Assembly: GCF_036323395.1 (NCBI RefSeq)
Contig: NZ_AP028907.1
Location: forward strand, 1,680,001 to 1,712,000
Origin: Pyrodictium abyssi
GTDB taxonomy: Archaea > Thermoproteota > Thermoprotei_A > Sulfolobales > Pyrodictiaceae
Length of the DNA: 32,000 bases
Reading direction: 5' to 3'
Part shown: piece after piece, positions 204 to 21,590 of the stretch
How positions within the stretch are numbered: the stretch's first letter is position 1
How the letters are laid out: each line of letters opens with the position of its first letter
Program-made: the position numbers and the translations under genes
The notes under the pieces: model-generated
The model's database searches: none
Seen by the model: the letters and a program-made list of their open reading frames with translations, nothing else
Told to the model about the DNA's origin: nothing

Positions 204-327
204 AGGATGGTACACCCGGGTACACCTGGGGTGTCCCCTGAGTGTATTAGGGCTTTCGCCTAGCCGCGCTCTACGACCACCCCCCGGGGCAGCTGCGCGG
301 AGACGACCCGGGGGCAGGAATGAGCCT

Positions 328-741
328 TCAGTCCCGGGGGCTAGGCAGCGTCTCCGAGCCCCGGCCCTCCTCGGCGCTGCAGACAACGCCTCCTATCAGG
401 GCTCTGAGCTCCTTGACGAGCCTGCGGAGCGCCTCTTCGGCGCCGGGCCGGGCCCGGTAGTACTTCCTCATCGTGCCGGCTGGGCTCCGCGCCCAGTAGC
501 TCTCTAGGAGGCCAAGCTTCTCCAGCCTCTTCAGCACGTCGTACACCGTGCTCTCGCTGGGCGCTAGCCCGGGCGCAGCCTCCTCCAGGTAGCGGCGCAC
601 AGCGTAGCCGTGCAGGGGGCCACGGCGGGCTAGGAGGTCGAGCACCACGATGCTGTAGAGCCCGACCCTCAGGTCGCGGAGCAGCTTCTCGACAGCCCGG
701 TCCACGCCCGGCACCGGCCCCACACGTGCATACCCGGTCAC
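328..741 (-). CDS. PadR-family winged-helix transcriptional regulator
   Basis: 137-aa ORF with a GTG start. LYSIVVLDLLARRGPLHGYAVRRYLEE...STVYDVLKRLEKLGLLESYWA...RKYYR matches the PadR wHTH core pattern. Confidence 0.85.
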   Translation of the reverse strand: MTGYARVGPVPGVDRAVEKLLRDLRVGLYSIVVLDLLARRGPLHGYAVRRYLEEAAPGLAPSESTVYDVLKRLEKLGLLESYWARSPAGTMRKYYRARPGAEEALRRLVKELRALIGGVVCSAEEGRGSETLPSPRD

Positions 742-8185: not shown

Positions 8186-9919
8186 TTATGGGAACTGCCA
8201 GTCCTTGGGTATCTCTCCTACTATCTCCACCGCCTTGGCCAGCTCTGGGTCCGCCTTCACCTTGCTTATGATGTAGTTCACCGCCTCCTCTGGCGTCATC
8301 TCGCCGCGCAGCACCTTGTCCACGGCGTCAGCGAATATCTTGGCGAGCTGCGGGTACTGCGGGTGTATCGGTGTCAGGTGTGTATATGCTAGCATCTTGC
8401 TCGCGCTAGCCAGGAACTCTATGTTTATCTCGTTGACAGTCGCCTTCACAATATCTGCTATCGCGTTCTTCACCTCGGGGCTTAGCTCGACCTCTAGCTT
8501 GGCTAGCTTATCCACCCAAGTTTTGTCGGATATTAGCTGCTCGGCTGCCTTTCTCACCGGTAGGTGTGCGCTTATGATGCTGTGTATCGCGTTTAGGTCC
8601 GGGTCGCTAGCCTTCACTACTAGCAGGAATGCTAGCATCTGGTAGACGTCGTGCAGCTCGTCGTACTTGGGGTTGTCCTTGCCAGCGTTGCTAGCTATCA
8701 TCCACACGAATGGCTGGCTGAGCGTCACGGGCTTGTCGCCGGGGTCACCGGCGGCGAAGAGCGTGTAGTAGAAGTACTTCTTCACCTCCTCGGCTGTTAG
8801 CGGCCTCTGCTCACCAGTCTTGGGGTCGGTGTAGTAGGGCTTGGTCTGCCACTCTGTCCAGTGCCAGGTGCCGCCTATCCATATCAGGGTCTTGCCGCTG
8901 ACAGTTGACGGGTGTATCTGCTTACCCCAGTCCCAGCTCATCATGTCCTCTGGTATGAGCTTGTCGCGCGCCATCTTCCACTCCACGTAGAGCCACTTGT
9001 AGACCGCTGGCACGTCTAGGACGAGCTTGCCTGTCTTGGGGTCGCTTAGCTTGCCGCCGAAGGCGTAGATGAACTGTATTAGGTCTGGGTGGGCGCTACC
9101 CTTACGGTGTAGTACTCCCCACTCGCTGCACCCGGTCTCCACGGCTAGCTTGGCGTAGCGGTAGATGTCGTGCCAGGTTACCTCGCCCTTCTGTATCTTC
9201 TCGGCTAGGCCTGTCAGTATGTCCTCGCCGGTCTTCTCCTTGATGCACGCTGCTACGTCGGTGCGCCAGTATAGAGGCCGCGCCTCAGTGTCTTGTGGCA
9301 CACCGTAGTACTTGCCCTTGTAGCGGACTGCGCCAAGCAAGCTCTGGTAGAAGTCGTTGAGGAAGTCGCGGTACGCCTCAAGGTACTGGGTTATGTCCAG
9401 GAGATAGCCCTCGTCGGCGAACCTTGCTATGTGCTTGTAGCTGTTAGCCATTATGTCGGGGTTAGCCTGGCTCTGGAAGGCCGCAGCGAAGTCCTCTGCC
9501 AGCTGGTCGCCGCCGCCGCGCTTGAACTTCTGCTCCACGGTTATCTTGAAGTCTACGCCATGCTTCTCTAGTATCTTGTTGAGCCTGTAGGCCGCCTCCA
9601 CGACGGCTAGGGTCCTCAGCACGCTGTTGGGGTCTCCAGCGCCCCAGACGGTGTACTTGGCCTCATGTATCCCCTGGGAGGCAAGGTACCGGCCTATAGC
9701 GACTATGTCCTGCTCTATGTTCCCGGTGAGCCTAGGCTTCTCGGGCTTAGCCTGCGCCGCCGGCTGTGCGGCCGGCTGGGTAGCCGGCGACGCTGGAGAC
9801 GTCTCCGCGGGGGCGGCTGGCTTCTCGCCTCCACGGAGGAGGAACGCGGCGCCGACCACCACGAGGAGGATGACTATGCCTGCTATGACTAGGCTCGTGC
9901 GCTGGGCCACGACTGTCAC
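8186..9919 (-). CDS. Extracellular solute-binding protein (family 1) of the ABC operon, membrane-anchored
   Basis: 577 aa with a GTG start. An N-terminal TM anchor (LVIAGIVILLVVVGAAFLL) is followed by an Ala/Pro/Gln/Thr-rich linker (PAAPAETSPASPATQPAAQPAAQAKPEKP), then a Trp/Tyr-rich SBP-like body. It is the first gene of the SBP-permease-permease-ATPase string. Confidence 0.85.
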   Translation of the reverse strand: MTVVAQRTSLVIAGIVILLVVVGAAFLLRGGEKPAAPAETSPASPATQPAAQPAAQAKPEKPRLTGNIEQDIVAIGRYLASQGIHEAKYTVWGAGDPNSVLRTLAVVEAAYRLNKILEKHGVDFKITVEQKFKRGGGDQLAEDFAAAFQSQANPDIMANSYKHIARFADEGYLLDITQYLEAYRDFLNDFYQSLLGAVRYKGKYYGVPQDTEARPLYWRTDVAACIKEKTGEDILTGLAEKIQKGEVTWHDIYRYAKLAVETGCSEWGVLHRKGSAHPDLIQFIYAFGGKLSDPKTGKLVLDVPAVYKWLYVEWKMARDKLIPEDMMSWDWGKQIHPSTVSGKTLIWIGGTWHWTEWQTKPYYTDPKTGEQRPLTAEEVKKYFYYTLFAAGDPGDKPVTLSQPFVWMIASNAGKDNPKYDELHDVYQMLAFLLVVKASDPDLNAIHSIISAHLPVRKAAEQLISDKTWVDKLAKLEVELSPEVKNAIADIVKATVNEINIEFLASASKMLAYTHLTPIHPQYPQLAKIFADAVDKVLRGEMTPEEAVNYIISKVKADPELAKAVEIVGEIPKDWQFP

Positions 9920-9937
9920 CCTTACCTAGAACTGCCG

Positions 9938-9946
9938 TATATATAG
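9938..9946 (-). promoter_or_regulatory. TATA box for the ABC transporter operon
   Basis: The plus strand reads TATATATAG, in an AT-rich divergent intergenic region. It lies about 20-27 nt upstream of the GTG at 9919. Confidence 0.5.
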
Positions 9947-10085
9947 GACATGGCTGAAATAATTAAGCGTTATCATTTTCCGCCCATGGACTGAGCTACA
10001 CCGTACTCCCAGCTTCTAACGGGATAGCTCCCCGGGCAGTGCTACGGGGGATGCTTACCTGACGCGAGGAGCCGGCTCGCTAGGC

Positions 10086-10093
10086 TTTTATTA
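10086..10093 (+). promoter_or_regulatory. TATA-like box for thrC
   Basis: TTTTATTA lies 22 nt upstream of ATG 10115, which is leaderless geometry. Confidence 0.45.
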
Positions 10094-10114
10094 CAGCGGG
10101 CAGCAGGAGTGGGC

Positions 10115-11389
10115 ATGGCGTGGGAGTTTGGATACGCGGCAGGCGATGCCCTTGGATTCGCGCATGAGGTAGAACTTTACTGCATCTCCTGCGGGGAGAG
10201 GTACCCGCCGCACCCCAGGCTGACACGCTGCACCCGCTGCGGCGGGCTCCTCGACGTAAGGGTGGCACCTAGGGAGCCCCCGTCCTGGCGGATATGGGAG
10301 CAGCGCAGGCCAGGGGTGTGGCGGTACTGGGAGCTACTACCAGCAGTCAGCGACACTAAGCCAGTGACGCTGGGCGAGGGCGCTACGCCGCTAGTGGAGC
10401 TCGAGCGTATAGGCCGGATGCTGGGGCTGAGGAGGCTCTACGCTAAGAACGAGGGCCAGAACCCCACCGGGAGCTTCAAGGACCGCGGCATGACCGTAGC
10501 GGTATCGCTGGCTAAGGCTATACGCGCGCGTGCCCTCATCGTGGCTAGCACTGGCAACACGGCAGCCAGCGTCTCAGCGTACGCTGCACGCGCCGGGCTG
10601 CGGAGGATAGTAGTGGTGCCGCGGAGAAAGACAGCGCTGGGCAAGCTGGCGCAGAGCGTACTCTACGGCGCAGACATAGTCGAGATCGAGGGAAGCTTCG
10701 ACGCGGCCCTCAAGGCCGTCATGACGGCTGTGGAGGAGGACCCGAGGCTCTACCCGCTGAACAGCTTCAACCCGTGGAGGCTCGAGGGCCAGAAGACCCT
10801 AGCCTACGAGGTCGCCGAGGCGCTGGGAGGCGAGCCGCCCGACTGGGTGGTTGTGCCCGTCGGCAACGCGGGCAACATATCGGCGATATGGAAGGGGTTC
10901 AAGGAGCTCTACCGCTACGGGCTGATAACCAGGCTCCCCCGGATGGCCGGGGTGCAGGCTGAGGGCGCTGCCCCGCTGGCGAGGGCGTGGCAGAAGGGCC
11001 TAGACAAGCCGCTGTTCGTCGACAAGCCGGAGACACGCGCCACAGCGATAAGGATCGGCCACCCGGTGAACTGGCCTAAGGCCATGCGCGCTGTGAAGGA
11101 GAGTAACGGCGTCTTCACCATAGTCAGTGACGAGGAGATCGTCAGGGCTCAGGCGATGCTAGCACGGCTCGAGGGCGTAGCGGTGGAGCCTGCTAGCGCC
11201 GCGAGCCTCGCAGGGCTGATGCGGCTCGTCGAGGACGGCGTCATAGCGCCGGACGAGACCGTAGTGATAGTGCTGACGGGCCACGGGCTGAAGGACCCAC
11301 AGGCCATGCTCGAGGCTGGCGCGAGGAGGTACGTGGCGGGAAGCCCCGAGGAGGCTGTGAAGATAGTACTAGGGCTCGCCGAGAGCTAG
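10115..11389 (+). CDS. thrC: Threonine synthase
   Basis: PLP-lysine motif GSFKDRGMTVAVS. N-terminal zinc-ribbon CxxC...CxxC (YCISCGERY...RCTRCGG). STGNTAAS and GNAGN motifs. The track start is GTG 10109; ATG 10115 is preferred because of the TATA spacing. Confidence 0.9.
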   Translation: MAWEFGYAAGDALGFAHEVELYCISCGERYPPHPRLTRCTRCGGLLDVRVAPREPPSWRIWEQRRPGVWRYWELLPAVSDTKPVTLGEGATPLVELERIGRMLGLRRLYAKNEGQNPTGSFKDRGMTVAVSLAKAIRARALIVASTGNTAASVSAYAARAGLRRIVVVPRRKTALGKLAQSVLYGADIVEIEGSFDAALKAVMTAVEEDPRLYPLNSFNPWRLEGQKTLAYEVAEALGGEPPDWVVVPVGNAGNISAIWKGFKELYRYGLITRLPRMAGVQAEGAAPLARAWQKGLDKPLFVDKPETRATAIRIGHPVNWPKAMRAVKESNGVFTIVSDEEIVRAQAMLARLEGVAVEPASAASLAGLMRLVEDGVIAPDETVVIVLTGHGLKDPQAMLEAGARRYVAGSPEEAVKIVLGLAES

Positions 11390-17878: not shown

Positions 17879-18244
17879 TCAGCGCCCCTGCTTCTCGCTG
17901 CTCCTCTGGCGCCCCCGGAGGAGGGAGCCGAGGACACCCCCTATACCCGACAGCAGGGCGCCAGCCGCGCCCATGAGGACCAGTGCTGTGCCCACAGCGC
18001 CGCCGGCCAGCAGCCCCACTATGCCCGCAAAGAACGCGCCGAGGGCAGCCACTACGACGGCTACGAAGACCGCGCCGAATATCCCCGCCAGGAAGCCTGC
18101 CACGAGGCCACGGTGCGGAGGGCCGCCCGCCAGGAGCCCGGCCACCAGGCCACCGAGGAAGTCGGCAGCGAGCGGCGGCACCACAGCGGCAAGTAGTAGC
18201 CTAGCAACGAACCCCGCTAGGACAGCAGCAGCCATACCAGCCAA
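17879..18244 (-). CDS. Small Gly/Ala-rich integral membrane protein (glycine-zipper-like)
   Basis: 121 aa, almost entirely hydrophobic G/A/L/V repeats with a basic C-terminal tail. It ends 14 nt upstream of mgtE on the same strand. The opposite-strand ORF (17973..18335) is Pro/Arg/Thr-rich and looks like a shadow. Confidence 0.55.
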   Translation of the reverse strand: MAGMAAAVLAGFVARLLLAAVVPPLAADFLGGLVAGLLAGGPPHRGLVAGFLAGIFGAVFVAVVVAALGAFFAGIVGLLAGGAVGTALVLMGAAGALLSGIGGVLGSLLRGRQRSSEKQGR

Positions 18245-18346: not shown

Positions 18347-19024
18347 TTGCCGGCCGCGGTCGTCGTGAAGATTAGCGGGAAGCATGTCAACCCGGACAAG
18401 CCGGGCATGGTGAAGAGCTACGCCGAGGTGCTACGCAGGCTCCACGAGGAGGGCTACCGGCTAGCCGTCGTCGTGGGCGGCGGCCCGGTAGCGAGAGCCT
18501 ACATCGCCGCGGCGCGGGAGGCCGGGGCGAACCGCGCGCTCCAGGACATGCTGGGCATAGAGGCGGCGAGGCTCAACGCCCGGCTGCTAGCAGCCGCGCT
18601 CCACCCCGACGCGTACCCTGAGCCGCCGCGGAGCATCTGGGAGGCCCTAGAAGCGGCCGCAACCGGCAGGATAGTGGTCGCGGGAGGCTTCCAGCCCGGA
18701 CAGAGCACCGCGGGCGTGGCAGCACTCCTGGCAGAGACGCTCAACGCCGACCTGCTCGTACTAGCCACCACGGTGGATGGCGTCTACACCGCCGACCCCC
18801 GGCGGAGCCCAGACGCCAAGCTCATACCACGCCTAGGCTATGGGGAGCTCCGCAGCGTGCTCGAGCAGAGCGTCGAGCCCGGCCGCTACGAGCTACTAGA
18901 CCCCCTAGCACTCTCCATCGTCGAGAGGAGCGGTATCAGGGTAAGGGTGGTGAACGGCTCGGACCCCGAGAACGTGGCGAGGGCTGCGAGAGGCGAGGAG
19001 GTAGGCAGCCTAGTAGCACCGTGA
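18347..19024 (+). CDS. pyrH: Uridylate (UMP) kinase, archaeal type
   Basis: 225 aa. VVKISGKHV, LAVVVGGGPVARAYI and VVAGGFQPGQSTAGVAALLAE match the amino-acid-kinase fold and PyrH pattern. The start may be TTG 18347 or GTG 18365. Confidence 0.9.
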   Translation: MPAAVVVKISGKHVNPDKPGMVKSYAEVLRRLHEEGYRLAVVVGGGPVARAYIAAAREAGANRALQDMLGIEAARLNARLLAAALHPDAYPEPPRSIWEALEAAATGRIVVAGGFQPGQSTAGVAALLAETLNADLLVLATTVDGVYTADPRRSPDAKLIPRLGYGELRSVLEQSVEPGRYELLDPLALSIVERSGIRVRVVNGSDPENVARAARGEEVGSLVAP

Positions 19025-19572
19025 GCACTGCGCGTCCCCGGCAGCGCACTCGACGGCGCTGGCAGCAAACGTTAACTATAATGTACAATAATTAGAATAA
19101 TCAAACATTGTTTTGAAAGTGTGAGTAAGGCCTATAACCCCCTTATACGACTGTTGAACACGTAATCTTGGAGGGCGAGGGCGGCAGCCGAGGCAGCGTA
19201 TCACCCCTTGGGGCCGACCGGGCCCAGAACTCTATGCACCACCGCCCGGCGGCCCAACAACCAGAACCACTCCAACCCGTTCTCCCATCAAGTCGCTAGG
19301 ACAAGCGATACTATGGCCTACGCTGTCCAGGCTCCTAGAGTTGGCGCTGAGGCCCCCCTAGATGCACCGCTTGCCTGTCAGGACAAACGCCTCCTCCTAT
19401 ATAAGCGTGCAATAGGCCAGCTCATGTTGCGGCGCTATACGCTCTACAGGATACCGCCATAGGCTCCGCCAGGGAGAGGCCGCGGTACTGGCTTCCCGGT
19501 AACACTGCCTCCTAAACCACACCCTGGGGCACCTAGCTATATTCATGCATTGGGAGAAGGAGGGTGGAGAGT

Positions 19573-20226
19573 ATGAAGAGGGAGACGGCGACACCGGGAG
19601 GAGCGCCAAGCGGTGGCAGCGGAGCCGGTGGGCCCGCCGCCGGAGACGCCCGTAAGACGCGGATGAAGCCGCTAGTACTCCTCGTCGCGCTGCTGCCGCT
19701 GCTAGCGCTCACAGCTATCGGCCTCACCTACGCCCAGTGGAGCGAGACACTAAGCCTATCAGCGACGATATCTACTGGTAGCCTAGACGTAGACATAAAG
19801 GCTAATGAGGCCACTGACGTGACAACGTCATCACAGTACATAGACGTGTCACTATCCTTGACCTCTACGGACTCCGATCAAGGAAATGAGCAGCTCTCTA
19901 TAACCATAGAGAAGGCCTACCCTGGCGCTGAGGTTAATGTCACCTTTACGCTGGAAAATGTTGGGACTATTCCAGCTCTAGCCACGATAAAGCTAAACAC
20001 TGACACTATACCAAGTGATGTTGCAGCATGTGTGAATGTAAAGCTGTACAACGCGCAAGGCAATCCCATAAACACGCCATACACGATACAGTTAGCCCCG
20101 GGAGAATTTGAGAAGTTTAAGCTAGGCATAGAGATACCAAGCAGCTGCGACCTCGAAGAGAACAAGAAGGACGCTATCCAGCTCAACAACATCGTAGAGG
20201 TTGATGTTGAGCAAAACGTGAGTTAG
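19573..20226 (+). CDS. Secreted TasA/camelysin/AbpA-like subunit with a SipW-class signal peptide
   Basis: ATG 19573 is preceded by GGAGG (19559-19563) at 9-nt spacing. GTG 19564 or ATG 19663 are alternative starts. The h-region and cleavage context MKPLVLLVALLPLLALTAIGLTYAQWSETLSLSATISTGSLDV resembles the SipW-dependent signal peptide of TasA-family proteins. The mature part is Ser/Thr/Asn/Val-rich and beta-like. The gene is visibly more AT-rich than its surroundings. Confidence 0.7.
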   Translation: MKRETATPGGAPSGGSGAGGPAAGDARKTRMKPLVLLVALLPLLALTAIGLTYAQWSETLSLSATISTGSLDVDIKANEATDVTTSSQYIDVSLSLTSTDSDQGNEQLSITIEKAYPGAEVNVTFTLENVGTIPALATIKLNTDTIPSDVAACVNVKLYNAQGNPINTPYTIQLAPGEFEKFKLGIEIPSSCDLEENKKDAIQLNNIVEVDVEQNVS

Positions 20227-20269
20227 CAGAGGTAGTGAGCACAATATAAGTAAGAAGCTGGTTCATCTG

Positions 20270-20275
20270 TTTTTT
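20270..20275 (+). terminator. Oligo-T tract downstream of the TasA-like gene
   Basis: A TTTTTT run lies 44 nt after the stop, flanked by complementary AGAAGC (20253-20258) and GCTTCT (20281-20286). Archaeal termination commonly occurs at oligo-T. Confidence 0.4.
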
Positions 20276-20398
20276 CAGCTGCTTCTAATCCTCGACCCAT
20301 GTATCCGACTCGCCTAACATGATGTTAACCGCTCACTGCTCTAAACTTCACCTACTCCTAGTTAAGCCCTGCCTACTGCCGGGACGAGTCTAACCCCA

Positions 20399-20405
20399 TT
20401 TATAA
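20399..20405 (+). promoter_or_regulatory. TATA box (TTTATAA) upstream of the signal-peptidase fusion gene
   Basis: Consensus archaeal TATA about 43 nt upstream of TTG 20448. It is immediately followed by the inverted repeat AAGCAT-CAT-ATGCTT (20404-20418). Confidence 0.5.
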
Positions 20406-20447
20406 GCATCATATGCTTCGGCATAAGAGAGCACTGCGGGAGACTTC

Positions 20448-21590
20448 TTGGAGCGCTACCTTGTACATTACTCTAGAGATGCCGGGCAAGCCGAGACGAT
20501 AGAAGTGTGGAAGCCTACACGGCTACTAGTTCTGCTCATCTCGCTATTTCTTGCTGAACTAGCATACCTAGCCAGCATTAAGCTTCACCTATATCCGCCG
20601 CTGGTGAGGGGGATAGCCTGGCTTATCGCAGGGCTCGTCTCTCTAAGGCTTACAAGAAGTGGGGGGAGTCTTGACGGCCTAGTAGCTGCTGGGCTGGCTT
20701 CGATACTTCATATGGCCTCGATGCTCGTCTACGGACTTGTGGTTGGGTTTGGACTAAACGCAATGGCTCCGAGCCGGGAGCTGATGTTCTATACTATGCT
20801 GTGGGTTGGGCTGACGGCGCTGGGCCGGGAGATGGTCCGCTCGGCTGCTATACGTGGTGGCCCGTTCTATGCTGTGTTCGCCGCCTACGTTTGGGGTGTT
20901 GTCTCGTGGTACCCACTAGTGAGTCTGCTGCTCGGCCATAATCTCGGCCTCTTTGGCTCGTTGCTCGAGGCTGTTAACAGGCTTGGCTTTATACTGGCTG
21001 GAGAGCTCGTGGCGTCGCTGCTGGTGTGGCTCTACGGCTGGCCGGCTGGCAGCCTATACATCGTCGCAGCCTATGGCCTCTTCACGTGGTTCCCGCTGAT
21101 ACCCGCAGGCACCGCTATAGGCAGGGCACTAGCCTTTGCTTCTGCTTCCAGCGTGGCCGCTGTGGCTATGTATGCTAGGGCTTCCGGCGAGAGGGGATGG
21201 TGGCGTATAGTAGCCGTCTACGCGGCAGCCATCACGGCTATGTGGATAGTGCTGGGCTCTACGGGCGTCCTAGGGTTCTACGTGTTCGCCGTTGGCTCTG
21301 GCTCCATGGAGCCGGTGCTGAAGCCTGGCGACCTGGTGATAGTGCGGAAGGCTTCCCTGGACTCGATAGGGGTGGGCGACATAGTTGCCTATCGTAGCCC
21401 TGAGAACGGCGTCGTGATAGTCCACCGTGTCGTGGCCATAGACGGTGACGCGCTGGTGACTAAGGGTGATGCGAACCCGGAGCCGGACCCCTTCCGGGTA
21501 ACAGGGGACATGGTGCTGGGGAAGGTGGTGGCGAGGGTGCCGCTGCTCGGCTACCTGGCTAGGGGCGCGTTCGCCAGCTACCTGAAATAG
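20448..21590 (+). CDS. Polytopic membrane domain fused to a type I signal peptidase (S26B, SipW/Sec11-like)
   Basis: 380 aa with a TTG start. About 270 N-terminal residues form roughly 8-9 hydrophobic helices. The C-terminal ~110 aa carry all S26 boxes in order: VGSGSMEP (Ser nucleophile), KPGDLVIV, VIVHRVV (His of the Ser/His type) and TKGDANPEPD. Confidence 0.8.
   Translation: MERYLVHYSRDAGQAETIEVWKPTRLLVLLISLFLAELAYLASIKLHLYPPLVRGIAWLIAGLVSLRLTRSGGSLDGLVAAGLASILHMASMLVYGLVVGFGLNAMAPSRELMFYTMLWVGLTALGREMVRSAAIRGGPFYAVFAAYVWGVVSWYPLVSLLLGHNLGLFGSLLEAVNRLGFILAGELVASLLVWLYGWPAGSLYIVAAYGLFTWFPLIPAGTAIGRALAFASASSVAAVAMYARASGERGWWRIVAVYAAAITAMWIVLGSTGVLGFYVFAVGSGSMEPVLKPGDLVIVRKASLDSIGVGDIVAYRSPENGVVIVHRVVAIDGDALVTKGDANPEPDPFRVTGDMVLGKVVARVPLLGYLARGAFASYLK

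Follow-up and report, generated by a model that had tools for sequence, protein, structure and literature searches.

A secreted-protein gene and a signal peptidase gene lie side by side in an AT-rich patch of the Pyrodictium abyssi chromosome (order Desulfurococcales), raising the questions of which fibre family the secreted protein belongs to, whether its neighbour is the enzyme that cleaves it and how the patch arose. A 32,000-nt stretch of this chromosome, here called the window, was analysed. The product of 19573..20226 exactly matches WP_338249486.1 of P. abyssi, which is named AbpX, and the product of 20448..21590 (+ strand, 380 residues) exactly matches WP_338249487.1, a signal peptidase I (SPase I). 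AbpX of P. abyssi AV2 has been described by Sleutel et al. (Nat Commun 2025; PMC12518558) and in a preprint (bioRxiv 10.64898/2026.01.04.697558), and the protein and locus found here are the ones described there, down to the accession of the downstream SPase I and the cleavage site proposed. The locus and the interpretation of AbpX are already published, and the locus itself holds nothing beyond the 2025 and 2026 AbpX papers; strain-level mosaicism, a compositional anomaly and the intergenic oligo-T tract were not found in the preprint.

With a probability of roughly 0.93, the locus is a minimal two-gene abpX module of P. abyssi in which pre-AbpX is presumably cut by the adjoining peptidase, AbpX assembles into calcium-dependent donor-strand fibrils and the body of the subunit is exchanged by recombination. 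A preliminary description, made from the letters of the window, had proposed a fibre or biofilm-matrix locus in a Desulfurococcales-type crenarchaeon, and the identity of the subunit to solved P. abyssi AbpX structures bears this out. Both open reading frames are real, the hydrophobic signal segment ending in LTAIGLTYAQWSETLSLSATISTGSLDV is found in the first product, and the C-terminal part of the second carries all four motifs GSGSMEP, GDLV, VHRV and GDAN. The locus validates such a tool-less reading of raw sequence, by which a donor-strand fibre of TasA type and its peptidase were rightly identified.

Table 1. Features of the abpX locus, in window coordinates.
Feature	Position	Strand	Basis or remark
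Candidate archaeal TATA box TATATAAG	19398..19405	+	Putative; ~170 nt upstream of abpX ATG
Shine–Dalgarno-like GGAGGGTGGAG	19559..19569	+	Read from sequence; 3 nt before ATG 19573
AbpX signal peptide, aa 1–54	19573..19734	+	9SJ2 chains begin at Q55
Mature AbpX, 163 aa, jelly-roll body, and stop codon	19735..20226	+	Identity to 9SJ2 and 9RHP
AbpX donor strand, mature W2–I12 (precursor W56–I66)	19738..19770	+	Published cryoEM description
Low-GC, hyperdivergent, mosaic segment	19793..20596	.	AbpX body after ...GSLDVDI, spacer, first ~50 peptidase codons
Oligo-T (T6), candidate archaeal terminator/attenuator	20270..20275	+	Putative function; 44 nt after abpX stop
TTTATAA, candidate separate promoter	20399..20405	+	Weak candidate; 43 nt upstream of peptidase TTG start
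Peptidase N-terminal polytopic membrane domain, aa 1–275, ~9 TM helices	20448..21272	+	No known family
Peptidase S26 catalytic domain, aa 276–380, and stop codon	21273..21590	+	TIGR02228, PF10502

The longest reading frame of abpX, 19564..20226 (+), opens with GTG, and the annotated ATG at 19573 yields a precursor of 217 residues. The start is placed at 19573 because of the position of the Shine–Dalgarno-like element, as in WP_338249486.1; within this element, GGGTGGAG is invariant in the related loci L001 and L003. The signal peptide consists of a 30-residue Gly/Pro/Ala-rich n-region followed by a hydrophobic core ending in TYA, and the long n-region is found in all Pyrodictium AbpX alleles. 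The AbpX paper gives a 54-residue SPase I signal and takes the mature protein from Q55 (TYA/QW), the site near which cleavage had been predicted from the letters and at which the chains of the cryoEM fibril (PDB 9SJ2) start. Q55 is taken here as the native N-terminus; no report of a native N-terminus was found in the AbpX papers. In the junction, which reads TYA followed by QWSETLSLSATI, residues W56 and S57 are invariant among 12 homologues, and conservation reaches at least 90% at E58, T59 and L60.

Residues 55–217 are 100% identical to 9SJ2 (E = 1.4e-100) and to the crystal structure 9RHP, both entries being named AbpX. It is on these deposited structures of identical sequence that the jelly-roll fold and donor-strand polymerisation rest. 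The AbpX papers describe a TasA-superfamily jelly-roll subunit that polymerises by calcium-dependent, chaperone-free donor-strand complementation (PMC12518558; bioRxiv 10.64898/2026.01.04.697558), and they report a low pI and the calcium ligands D18, D46, D48, E52, E4 and E142 in mature numbering. The corresponding precursor residues D72, D100, D102, E106, E58 and E196 are present and kept in all Pyrodictium alleles, with E106 replaced by Asp in L001. These ligands are retained even in an allele whose body is 41% identical. The AlphaFold2 model of AbpX, built from a shallow alignment, is all-beta and poor (pLDDT 66).

Within the TasA superfamily, the subunit is a member of the AbpX clade, apparently rather than of AbpA. 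It had been called TasA/AbpA-type: the published structures uphold the TasA-superfamily part of that label, and the AbpA part is the less apt. AbpX has been placed nearer to TasA (16% identity) than to AbpA, and an AbpA homologue was not detected in P. abyssi by the authors of AbpX. By eye only, the AbpX junction resembles the TasA type. The links of the AbpX sequence itself to TasA and to AbpA are weak and sub-threshold. An AbpX-family profile searched against PDB sequences retrieved AbpX alone, with AbpA (7UEG) absent at E ≤ 10. Against Pfam Peptidase_M73, a comparison proposed in the preliminary description, AbpX scored 18.6 bits (E = 0.0018), which falls short of the 22.5-bit gathering threshold and covers only residues 111–153; matches to this family at E ≤ 0.1 occur in only 3 of the 12 homologues. 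The suggested structural comparison came out mixed: Foldseek searches with the poor model placed AbpA (7UEG) fifth (E = 8.8e-3, probability 0.98, TM 0.35/0.41) and returned no TasA in the top 50, where the matches were weak and AbpX's own entries were also missing. For the SipW-dependent signal-peptide model that had also been suggested, a scan of AbpX against NCBIfam at E ≤ 1 gave FxLYD_dom alone (E = 0.057), a search in which HMMER filters readily discard models of such short length.

Judged by sequence, the adjoining enzyme is an archaeal/ER-type Ser/His (not Ser/Lys) signal peptidase I, MEROPS S26B-like. It scores 81.9 bits against NCBIfam TIGR02228, the archaeal SPase I model (cut-off 51.85), and 37.9 bits against Pfam Peptidase_S26 (PF10502; curated cut-off 22.9). 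The catalytic residues Ser286 (GSGSMEP), His326 (VHRV), Asp341 and Asp347 (GDAN..D) are invariant in eight homologues. The SPase I part of the earlier 'SipW-type' assignment is thereby sound, and the SipW part is not: the SipW equivalog NF046067 gives 50.9 bits, below its curated cut-off of 190, and it matches all eight homologues, each far under that value. Foldseek listed SipA (4n31) and human SEC11A/C (7p2p/7p2q) among the best matches, and in these the S26 part alone was aligned. The low-confidence AlphaFold2 model (pLDDT 61) predicts helices across residues 23–272. The membrane domain has no Pfam or NCBIfam match, and phmmer over 1.84 billion representatives retrieved Pyrodictium proteins only; a four-sequence profile gained only three further multi-TM peptidases. 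The architecture is shared with four proteins of the comparison set (P0017, P0018, P0021 and P0022). An exosortase or CPBP-like membrane domain was considered and rejected, as a by-eye motif search showed no invariant polar residues in its support.

An AbpX-like gene and a multi-TM SPase are linked in five independent lineages, which agrees with the pairing expected from the preliminary description; the linkage was established by exact-protein look-ups, and a pattern scan of genome contigs gave one distant locus only. The pair occupies the same neighbourhood in L001 and L003 as in P. abyssi, and a different one in L005. In L007–L011, it occurs with HTH_45, minor and tip subunits and DUF5305. 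Upstream of abpX, TATATAAG is invariant inside a block conserved in three Pyrodictium strains. A T5–T6 run lies ~16–60 nt past the subunit-gene stop in all five lineages, in spacers that cannot be aligned, and TTTATAA upstream of the peptidase is found in the P. abyssi window and L012 only. The adjacency of abpX and the peptidase gene may not be a simple operon, and the oligo-T tract that follows abpX probably keeps expression of the peptidase below that of the abundant subunit. Rfam searches (whole window at the gathering threshold; 18950–20500 at an E-value threshold) and a tRNA scan returned nothing relevant, and folding 19105–19300 of the conserved 548-nt upstream spacer gave z = 0.32, with no sign of a structured RNA. 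A bacterial promoter/terminator scan is uninformative for an archaeon.

Each gene product admits another reading. The 217-residue product could be a camelysin-type metalloprotease (Peptidase_M73) or a CARDB-type cell-adhesion domain rather than a fibre subunit, as the weak Peptidase_M73 match (E = 0.0018), the UniRef name 'CARDB domain-containing protein' and a CARDB match at E = 0.025 in 1 of 12 homologues would have it; both matches lie under curated thresholds, and the identity of AbpX to solved fibril and monomer structures with donor-strand polymerisation makes this reading vanishingly improbable. The AbpX authors postulate that the downstream SPase I (WP_338249487.1) is the dedicated AbpX processing enzyme, and the adjoining peptidase is likewise postulated here to cleave AbpX. 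It is quite unlikely that a general, housekeeping SPase I has instead come to lie beside abpX by chance. In favour of this, the enzyme passes the TIGR02228 equivalog model, the oligo-T tract and a possible promoter of its own part the two genes, and the view spans 32 kb of the genome, so that a second SPase I elsewhere would escape notice. Against this, the pairing recurs in five lineages, one of them in a different neighbourhood, the N-terminus of the peptidase co-varies with the abpX segment, and the multi-TM architecture is atypical of SPase I and is reported by the AbpX authors specifically at abpX loci.

GC content in successive 500-nt intervals across 19001–21000 is 0.576, 0.558, 0.472 and 0.556, compared with 0.69–0.70 upstream and 0.62–0.72 downstream. 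The GC3 of abpX is 0.581 versus 0.787 ± 0.048 in 30 other ORFs of the window (z = −4.3). Within the locus, the AbpX body (GC3 0.53), the 221-nt spacer (GC 0.47) and peptidase codons 1–50 (GC3 0.48) are low, and values close to normal are seen in the signal-peptide codons (0.74) and the S26 domain (0.78). The AT-rich patch first placed at ~19.07–20.45 kb is thus real in both windowed GC and GC3, but its right limit shifts: because the spacer and the first 50 peptidase codons are also low in GC, the zone reaches ~20.6–21.0 kb. Compared with the syntenic strain L001, the segment 19793–20596 is 15–50% identical per 60-column block (one block reaches 73%), and its flanks are 90–95% identical between Pyrodictium strains. 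Synonymous sites in the segment are saturated (pS 0.76 and 0.72 versus 0.13–0.17 in flanking genes). Furthermore, the identity ranking of the alleles flips at the segment boundary, from 98% versus 81% before it to 41% versus 69% after it.

From this mosaic divergence, recombinational exchange of fibre-body alleles follows as the best explanation, and the data, drawn from few metagenome contigs of which several come from one project, suggest swapping of the body segment alongside a conserved signal peptide, donor strand and set of calcium ligands. The 'lateral acquisition' first proposed for the patch is better described as exchange of a fibre-body segment among Pyrodictiaceae. A contrasting explanation, in which the amino-acid make-up and codon usage preferred by an abundant secreted protein account for the whole patch, with no lateral or recombinational origin, is unlikely. 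It draws on a body rich in Asn, Ile, Lys, Thr and Ser (GC2 0.35), on the very different L001 allele being just as low in GC and on distant lineages having no compositional anomaly at the locus. The patch goes beyond an amino-acid effect, because GC3 is lowered too (0.53 versus 0.79), as are the spacer and the first 50 peptidase codons; the module of a 54%-GC relative has the same GC3, and neither the saturated synonymous differences nor the flipped ranking fits with composition as the whole cause. Composition or expression-linked codon usage could nevertheless account for part of the low GC.

A mechanism can be proposed for the two-gene module. Pre-AbpX would be exported by Sec and cut after TYA54, presumably by the next-door peptidase, whose Ser286/His326 S26 domain would be held outside the cell by ~9 membrane helices. 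Cleavage would release the N-terminal amphipathic strand which, in the presence of Ca2+, would enter the groove left open in the jelly roll of the following subunit, giving donor-strand complementation without a chaperone or usher. The resulting ~2.5-nm fibrils would pair antiparallel into a para-crystalline biofilm-matrix lattice. Others have demonstrated the structure of AbpX, its lattice and the polymerisation of the recombinant protein in dependence on calcium; ex vivo bundles have been assigned to AbpX by their matching dimensions, as a postulate.

With a fibre body that varies as a mosaic from strain to strain, AbpX would be a candidate for a polymorphic determinant of surface or matrix in archaeal biofilms, much as pilins or flagellins vary in bacteria, and natural AbpX variants would be usable in hydrogel-materials work. 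More tentatively, and rather doubtfully as a whole, 19793–20596 may be a hypervariable cassette that recombines and comes from a pool of Pyrodictiaceae alleles of lower GC, with a conserved handle at either end: the signal peptide and donor strand at one, the peptidase core at the other. If so, cassette exchange would alter the fibril surface and inter-fibril pairing contacts and leave the polymerisation chemistry constant. Strain-specific matrix lattices would then provide kin discrimination in hyperthermophilic biofilms or, alternatively, exchange would permit escape from fibre-binding viruses or predators. Residues of the CC2 lattice contact are no more variable than the background (changes at 2 of 8 positions where the bodies are 77% identical, and at 6 of 8 where they are 41% identical), so that selection on the pairing interface gains no specific support from them.

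Among known systems, the larger abpX loci of other Thermoproteota, such as Desulfurococcaceae (L007–L011; Zestosphaera in the paper), likewise place an AbpX-like major subunit with an AMWSETL junction beside a multi-TM SPase I. They add HTH_45 regulators, a minor subunit, a 460-residue SdrD_B-containing tip protein and a DUF5305 accessory protein, none of which occurs in P. abyssi, and their peptidases carry a C-terminal TM helix that the P. abyssi enzyme lacks. The AbpA bundling pili of Pyrobaculum calidifontis (PDB 7UEG) resemble AbpX as archaeal donor-strand fibres with antiparallel bundling, but the AbpX profile does not retrieve their sequence at E ≤ 10. The abpX locus differs from tapA-sipW-tasA of Bacillus subtilis (TasA fibres, PDB 8AUR) in having no TapA-like factor, in its calcium-triggered, chaperone-free polymerisation and in a peptidase with ~9 extra TM helices that scores far below the SipW cut-off. 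With tapA-sipW-tasA, the P. abyssi locus shares a secreted jelly-roll subunit, a junction of the T-[YW]-A-x-[WF]-[SN]-[ED] type, donor-strand polymerisation, an ER-type (Ser/His) signal peptidase alongside and a role in the biofilm matrix.

The products of the subunit gene and its downstream neighbour, the peptidase gene, are exact matches to two Pyrodictium abyssi proteins, WP_338249486.1 / BES82297.1 (PABY_18640) and WP_338249487.1 / BES82298.1 (PABY_18650), respectively. The presence of a subunit and peptidase locus is confirmed, and every string quoted in the preliminary description is found in the two products: the hydrophobic segment ending ...LTAIGLTYAQWSETLSLSATISTGSLDV in the 217-aa protein, and GSGSMEP, GDLV, VHRV and GDAN in the C-terminal third of the 380-aa protein. 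Over residues 55–217, the precursor has 100% identity with the protein chains in PDB 9SJ2 (named 'AbpX') and with 9RHP, a self-complemented construct entered under the name 'Archaeal bundling protein X'. P. abyssi (Pyrodictiaceae) belongs to the order Desulfurococcales, so the earlier guess at a Desulfurococcales-type host was right. The earlier interpretation is supported overall, with corrections to the clade, the type of peptidase and the term 'lateral'.

The AbpX papers name the same accessions and structures, and the locus is therefore already known from the literature, accession numbers included. WP_338249486.1 came to light when the P. abyssi proteome was searched in Foldseek with TasA (8AUR) as query (bioRxiv 2024.12.30.630787; PMC12518558). 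Sleutel et al. (Nat Commun 2025; PMC12518558; preprint bioRxiv 2024.12.30.630787) named the protein AbpX, assigned it to the TasA superfamily as closer to TasA than to AbpA, saw no homologue of AbpA in this species and presumed the adjoining signal peptidase I gene to be the operon partner of abpX. The AbpX preprint (10.64898/2026.01.04.697558) describes AbpX as a mature protein of 163 aa preceded by a signal peptide of 54 residues. It reports a 3.6 Å cryoEM fibril joined by donor-strand complementation via W2–I12, with three Ca2+ sites involving D18, D46, D48 and E52, plus E4 and E142 of neighbouring protomers, as well as a crystal structure and a para-crystalline lattice model. Both the processing of AbpX by the adjoining peptidase and the identification of the ex vivo bundles as AbpX, based on matching dimensions, are postulates of these papers (PMC12518558; 10.64898/2026.01.04.697558). 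What remains of interest is the membrane domain and specificity of the peptidase, and the cassette-like variation of the fibre body between strains.

Sequence identity makes it certain that the 217-aa protein belongs to the AbpX clade. The clade-defining features (a donor strand aromatic at position 2 and acidic at position 4, the Ca ligands and an adjoining multi-TM peptidase) were all found, and are kept among the collected homologues. Identity to published AbpX supports the proposed TasA-type fibre subunit with a neighbouring signal peptidase, and the AbpX clade replaces the AbpA-type assignment. At the sequence level, the links of AbpX to TasA and AbpA are weak. The suggested profile check gave 18.6 bits with Pfam Peptidase_M73 (camelysin/TasA), below the curated threshold of 22.5, which places the protein outside Pfam's TasA family. 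Of 12 AbpX-like proteins, three matched this model at E ≤ 0.1. From all PDB sequences, a 12-sequence AbpX profile retrieved AbpX itself and nothing else. Foldseek with a poor AF2 model of AbpX (pLDDT 66; alignment of seven sequences) ranked AbpA fifth (7UEG; E = 8.8e-3, probability 0.98, TM 0.35/0.41), with TasA missing from the top 50; chaperone–usher pilins were also among the matches. The TasA-superfamily link rests on published structures and HHsearch analyses.

Conserved linkage of the two genes, another check proposed earlier, was found in relatives (L001, L003, L005 and L007–L011). Both genes are kept in L001 and L003, Pyrodictium strains from Logan metagenomes that share synteny with the window. 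In the 54%-GC relative L005, the pair (9491–11149; abpX broken by a scaffold gap) lies in another neighbourhood, with PAPS reductase upstream and a DUF3782/PDDEXK gene downstream, so abpX and the peptidase gene move as one unit. Larger loci with HTH_45 regulators (L007–L009 and L010–L011) encode a major subunit of 178 or 183 aa, a minor subunit of 224 or 231 aa and a multi-TM peptidase of 395 or 404 aa. Their subunits match AbpX in BLASTP at E = 1e-15 to 8e-5, and have junctions of A-M-W-S-E/Q-T-L type. The gene after the peptidase encodes DUF5305 (340 aa) in L007–L009 and a 331-aa protein with no Pfam match in L010–L011; L007–L009 additionally encode a 460-aa SdrD_B-containing protein.

A QWNE motif was observed at the C-terminal end of the ~180-aa subunits (...[FY]AQWNEV..) and the 224-/231-aa minor subunits (...VQWNEY...); its sources are L006 5962–6522, L007 4232–4768, 4793–5467 and 5549–6931, L010 5494–6045 and 6195–6890, and the proteins P0006 and P0007. 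In the 460-aa protein of L007 it is internal: YIQWNEA marks the end of an AbpX-like domain at the N-terminus. The motif recalls A(M/Q)WSETL, the cleavage/donor-strand motif at the N-terminus of the mature subunits, and its W and E are spaced like W2 and E4 of the Ca clamp. It is absent from P. abyssi AbpX, whose last residues are ...VEQNVS.

The AT-rich patch noted earlier is borne out by windowed GC and GC3, and the graded values (Table) make it a trough with its centre at the fibre body and spacer. In GC3, the abpX body of P. abyssi is equal to the L005 module (0.54, 0.48), and distant lineages have no compositional anomaly at the abpX locus. In L001, the flanking DNA is 90–95% identical over about 20 kb. 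For 19793–20596, blastn gave no alignment to L001, and identity per 60-column block is 15–50%, with a single block at 73%. The left boundary of this segment falls directly after ...STGSLDVDI, with the signal peptide and donor strand about 88% identical in DNA to L001; the right boundary lies inside the peptidase gene, at around codon 50. Synonymous differences are elevated within the segment (Table), which points to a coalescence far deeper than that of the flanks, and not merely to faster amino-acid change. In milder form, the pattern recurs in the closest strain (L012, L014), with dS of 0.57 in the body versus 0.21 in the peptidase.

The ranking of allele identities reverses at the left boundary: residues 31–73 of P. 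abyssi AbpX share 98% identity with the L001 allele and 81% with P0003, a homologue from a lower-GC lineage, and the body (residues 74–217) shares 41% and 69%, respectively. The preliminary description had proposed lateral acquisition. The anomalous segment stands, but pS, the reversed ranking and GC3 are better read as exchange of fibre-body alleles. For the handful of contigs compared, recombination among Pyrodictiaceae would be the most economical reading, in which the homology arms would be the conserved signal and donor-strand region on one side and the core of the peptidase on the other. Metagenome assemblies break repeatedly in or near abpX, which is consistent with co-existing alleles or strain-level polymorphism in natural populations. 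Contigs L002 (1–282) and L004 (1–520) begin inside abpX, L005 has an N-run at abpX (9343–9498), and L012–L014 are whole contigs of only 1.2–2.9 kb. A term search of the AbpX preprint (10.64898/2026.01.04.697558) did not find the mosaic, hyperdivergent segment. In the 41%-identical L001 allele none of the six Ca ligands is lost, nor is either cysteine, so assembly chemistry is conserved. Change at the published lattice-contact (CC2) residues does not exceed the background, and gives no specific evidence for selection on the pairing interface.

Features of the abpX–peptidase locus (window positions unless a contig is named)
Feature	Position	Strand	GC3	pS vs L001	Remark
Candidate promoter motif, TATATAAG	19398-19405				putative; invariant, in conserved part of 548-nt upstream spacer
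GGAGGGTGGAG motif	3 nt before ATG 19573				putative Shine-Dalgarno-like signal
abpX ORF	19564-20226	+	0.581 (z = -4.3)		annotated ATG 19573, 217 aa; GC3 for whole gene
abpX signal-peptide codons			0.74
abpX codons 1-73				0.42
abpX body			0.53	0.76
abpX–peptidase spacer					GC 0.47
T5-T6 tracts before peptidase gene	20270-20275; L012 1430; L001 10350; L005 9743; L013 1150; L007 6947; L010 6923
TTTATAA	20399-20405				ahead of peptidase start; P. abyssi and closest strain only
Peptidase ORF	20448-21590	+			TTG start, 380 aa
Peptidase codons 1-50			0.48	0.72
Peptidase codons 51-260			0.63
Rest of peptidase				0.33
Peptidase S26 domain			0.78
N-terminal membrane domain	residues 1-275				about nine helices (AF2, low confidence)
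Catalytic domain	aa ~276-380				Ser286, His326, Asp341, Asp347 invariant (n = 8 homologues)
pyrH, mgtE, glmU-like gene				0.13-0.17
30 other ORFs of window			0.787 +/- 0.048

The spacer upstream of abpX (19025–19572) is unusually long and mostly conserved among Pyrodictium strains, with a 25%-GC block at about 19069–19110, a GC-rich block at about 19160–19290 and a variable indel stretch at 19257–19373. It has no Rfam match, and its folding energy is not below that of shuffled sequences (z = 0.32). Between mgtE and pyrH lies a Gly/Ala/Leu-rich, very hydrophobic 121-aa ORF (17879–18244, minus strand), of equal length in L001 and L003 and without a Pfam family.

Oligo-T is an archaeal termination signal. 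A T5–T6 run occurs about 16–60 nt after the subunit-gene stop in all five independent lineages, whose spacers are unalignable, making it a candidate for a conserved terminator or attenuator; by a rough estimate, such a run arises by chance in a 50-nt window in about 7% of cases per lineage. Together with TTTATAA between the genes, it suggests that the 'tentative operon' of the AbpX authors may be an attenuated or split unit, giving much subunit and little peptidase.

The peptidase, previously called SipW-type, exceeds the curated cut-offs of Pfam Peptidase_S26 (37.9 bits; cut-off 22.9) and NCBIfam TIGR02228, archaeal signal peptidase I (81.9 bits; cut-off 51.85). With the SipW equivalog model it reaches 50.9 bits, far under the cut-off of 190, and it is a multi-TM archaeal SPase I rather than a SipW equivalent. 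Foldseek with its AF2 model retrieved S. pyogenes SipA, human SEC11A and SEC11C, and LexA/UmuD, via the catalytic domain only. Ten TM helices have been ascribed to AbpX-associated SPase I enzymes (10.64898/2026.01.04.697558). The low-confidence AF2 model of the P. abyssi enzyme has about nine helices ahead of the catalytic domain; an odd number would be needed for that domain to face the cell exterior. Pfam and NCBIfam hold no family for the membrane domain, and phmmer against 1.84 billion representatives detected no homologues outside Pyrodictium; a profile search extended the same multi-TM architecture to a small number of other peptidases from Thermoproteota.

The P. abyssi locus has been termed 'minimalistic' beside those of other archaea (10.64898/2026.01.04.697558). 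The Pyrodictium loci lack the DUF5305 accessory gene of L007–L009, and the multi-TM AbpX-associated peptidases P0017, P0018, P0021 and P0022 have a C-terminal TM helix that the Pyrodictium peptidases lack. Common to SipW, SEC11 and the P. abyssi peptidase is the archaeal/ER-type Ser/His arrangement.
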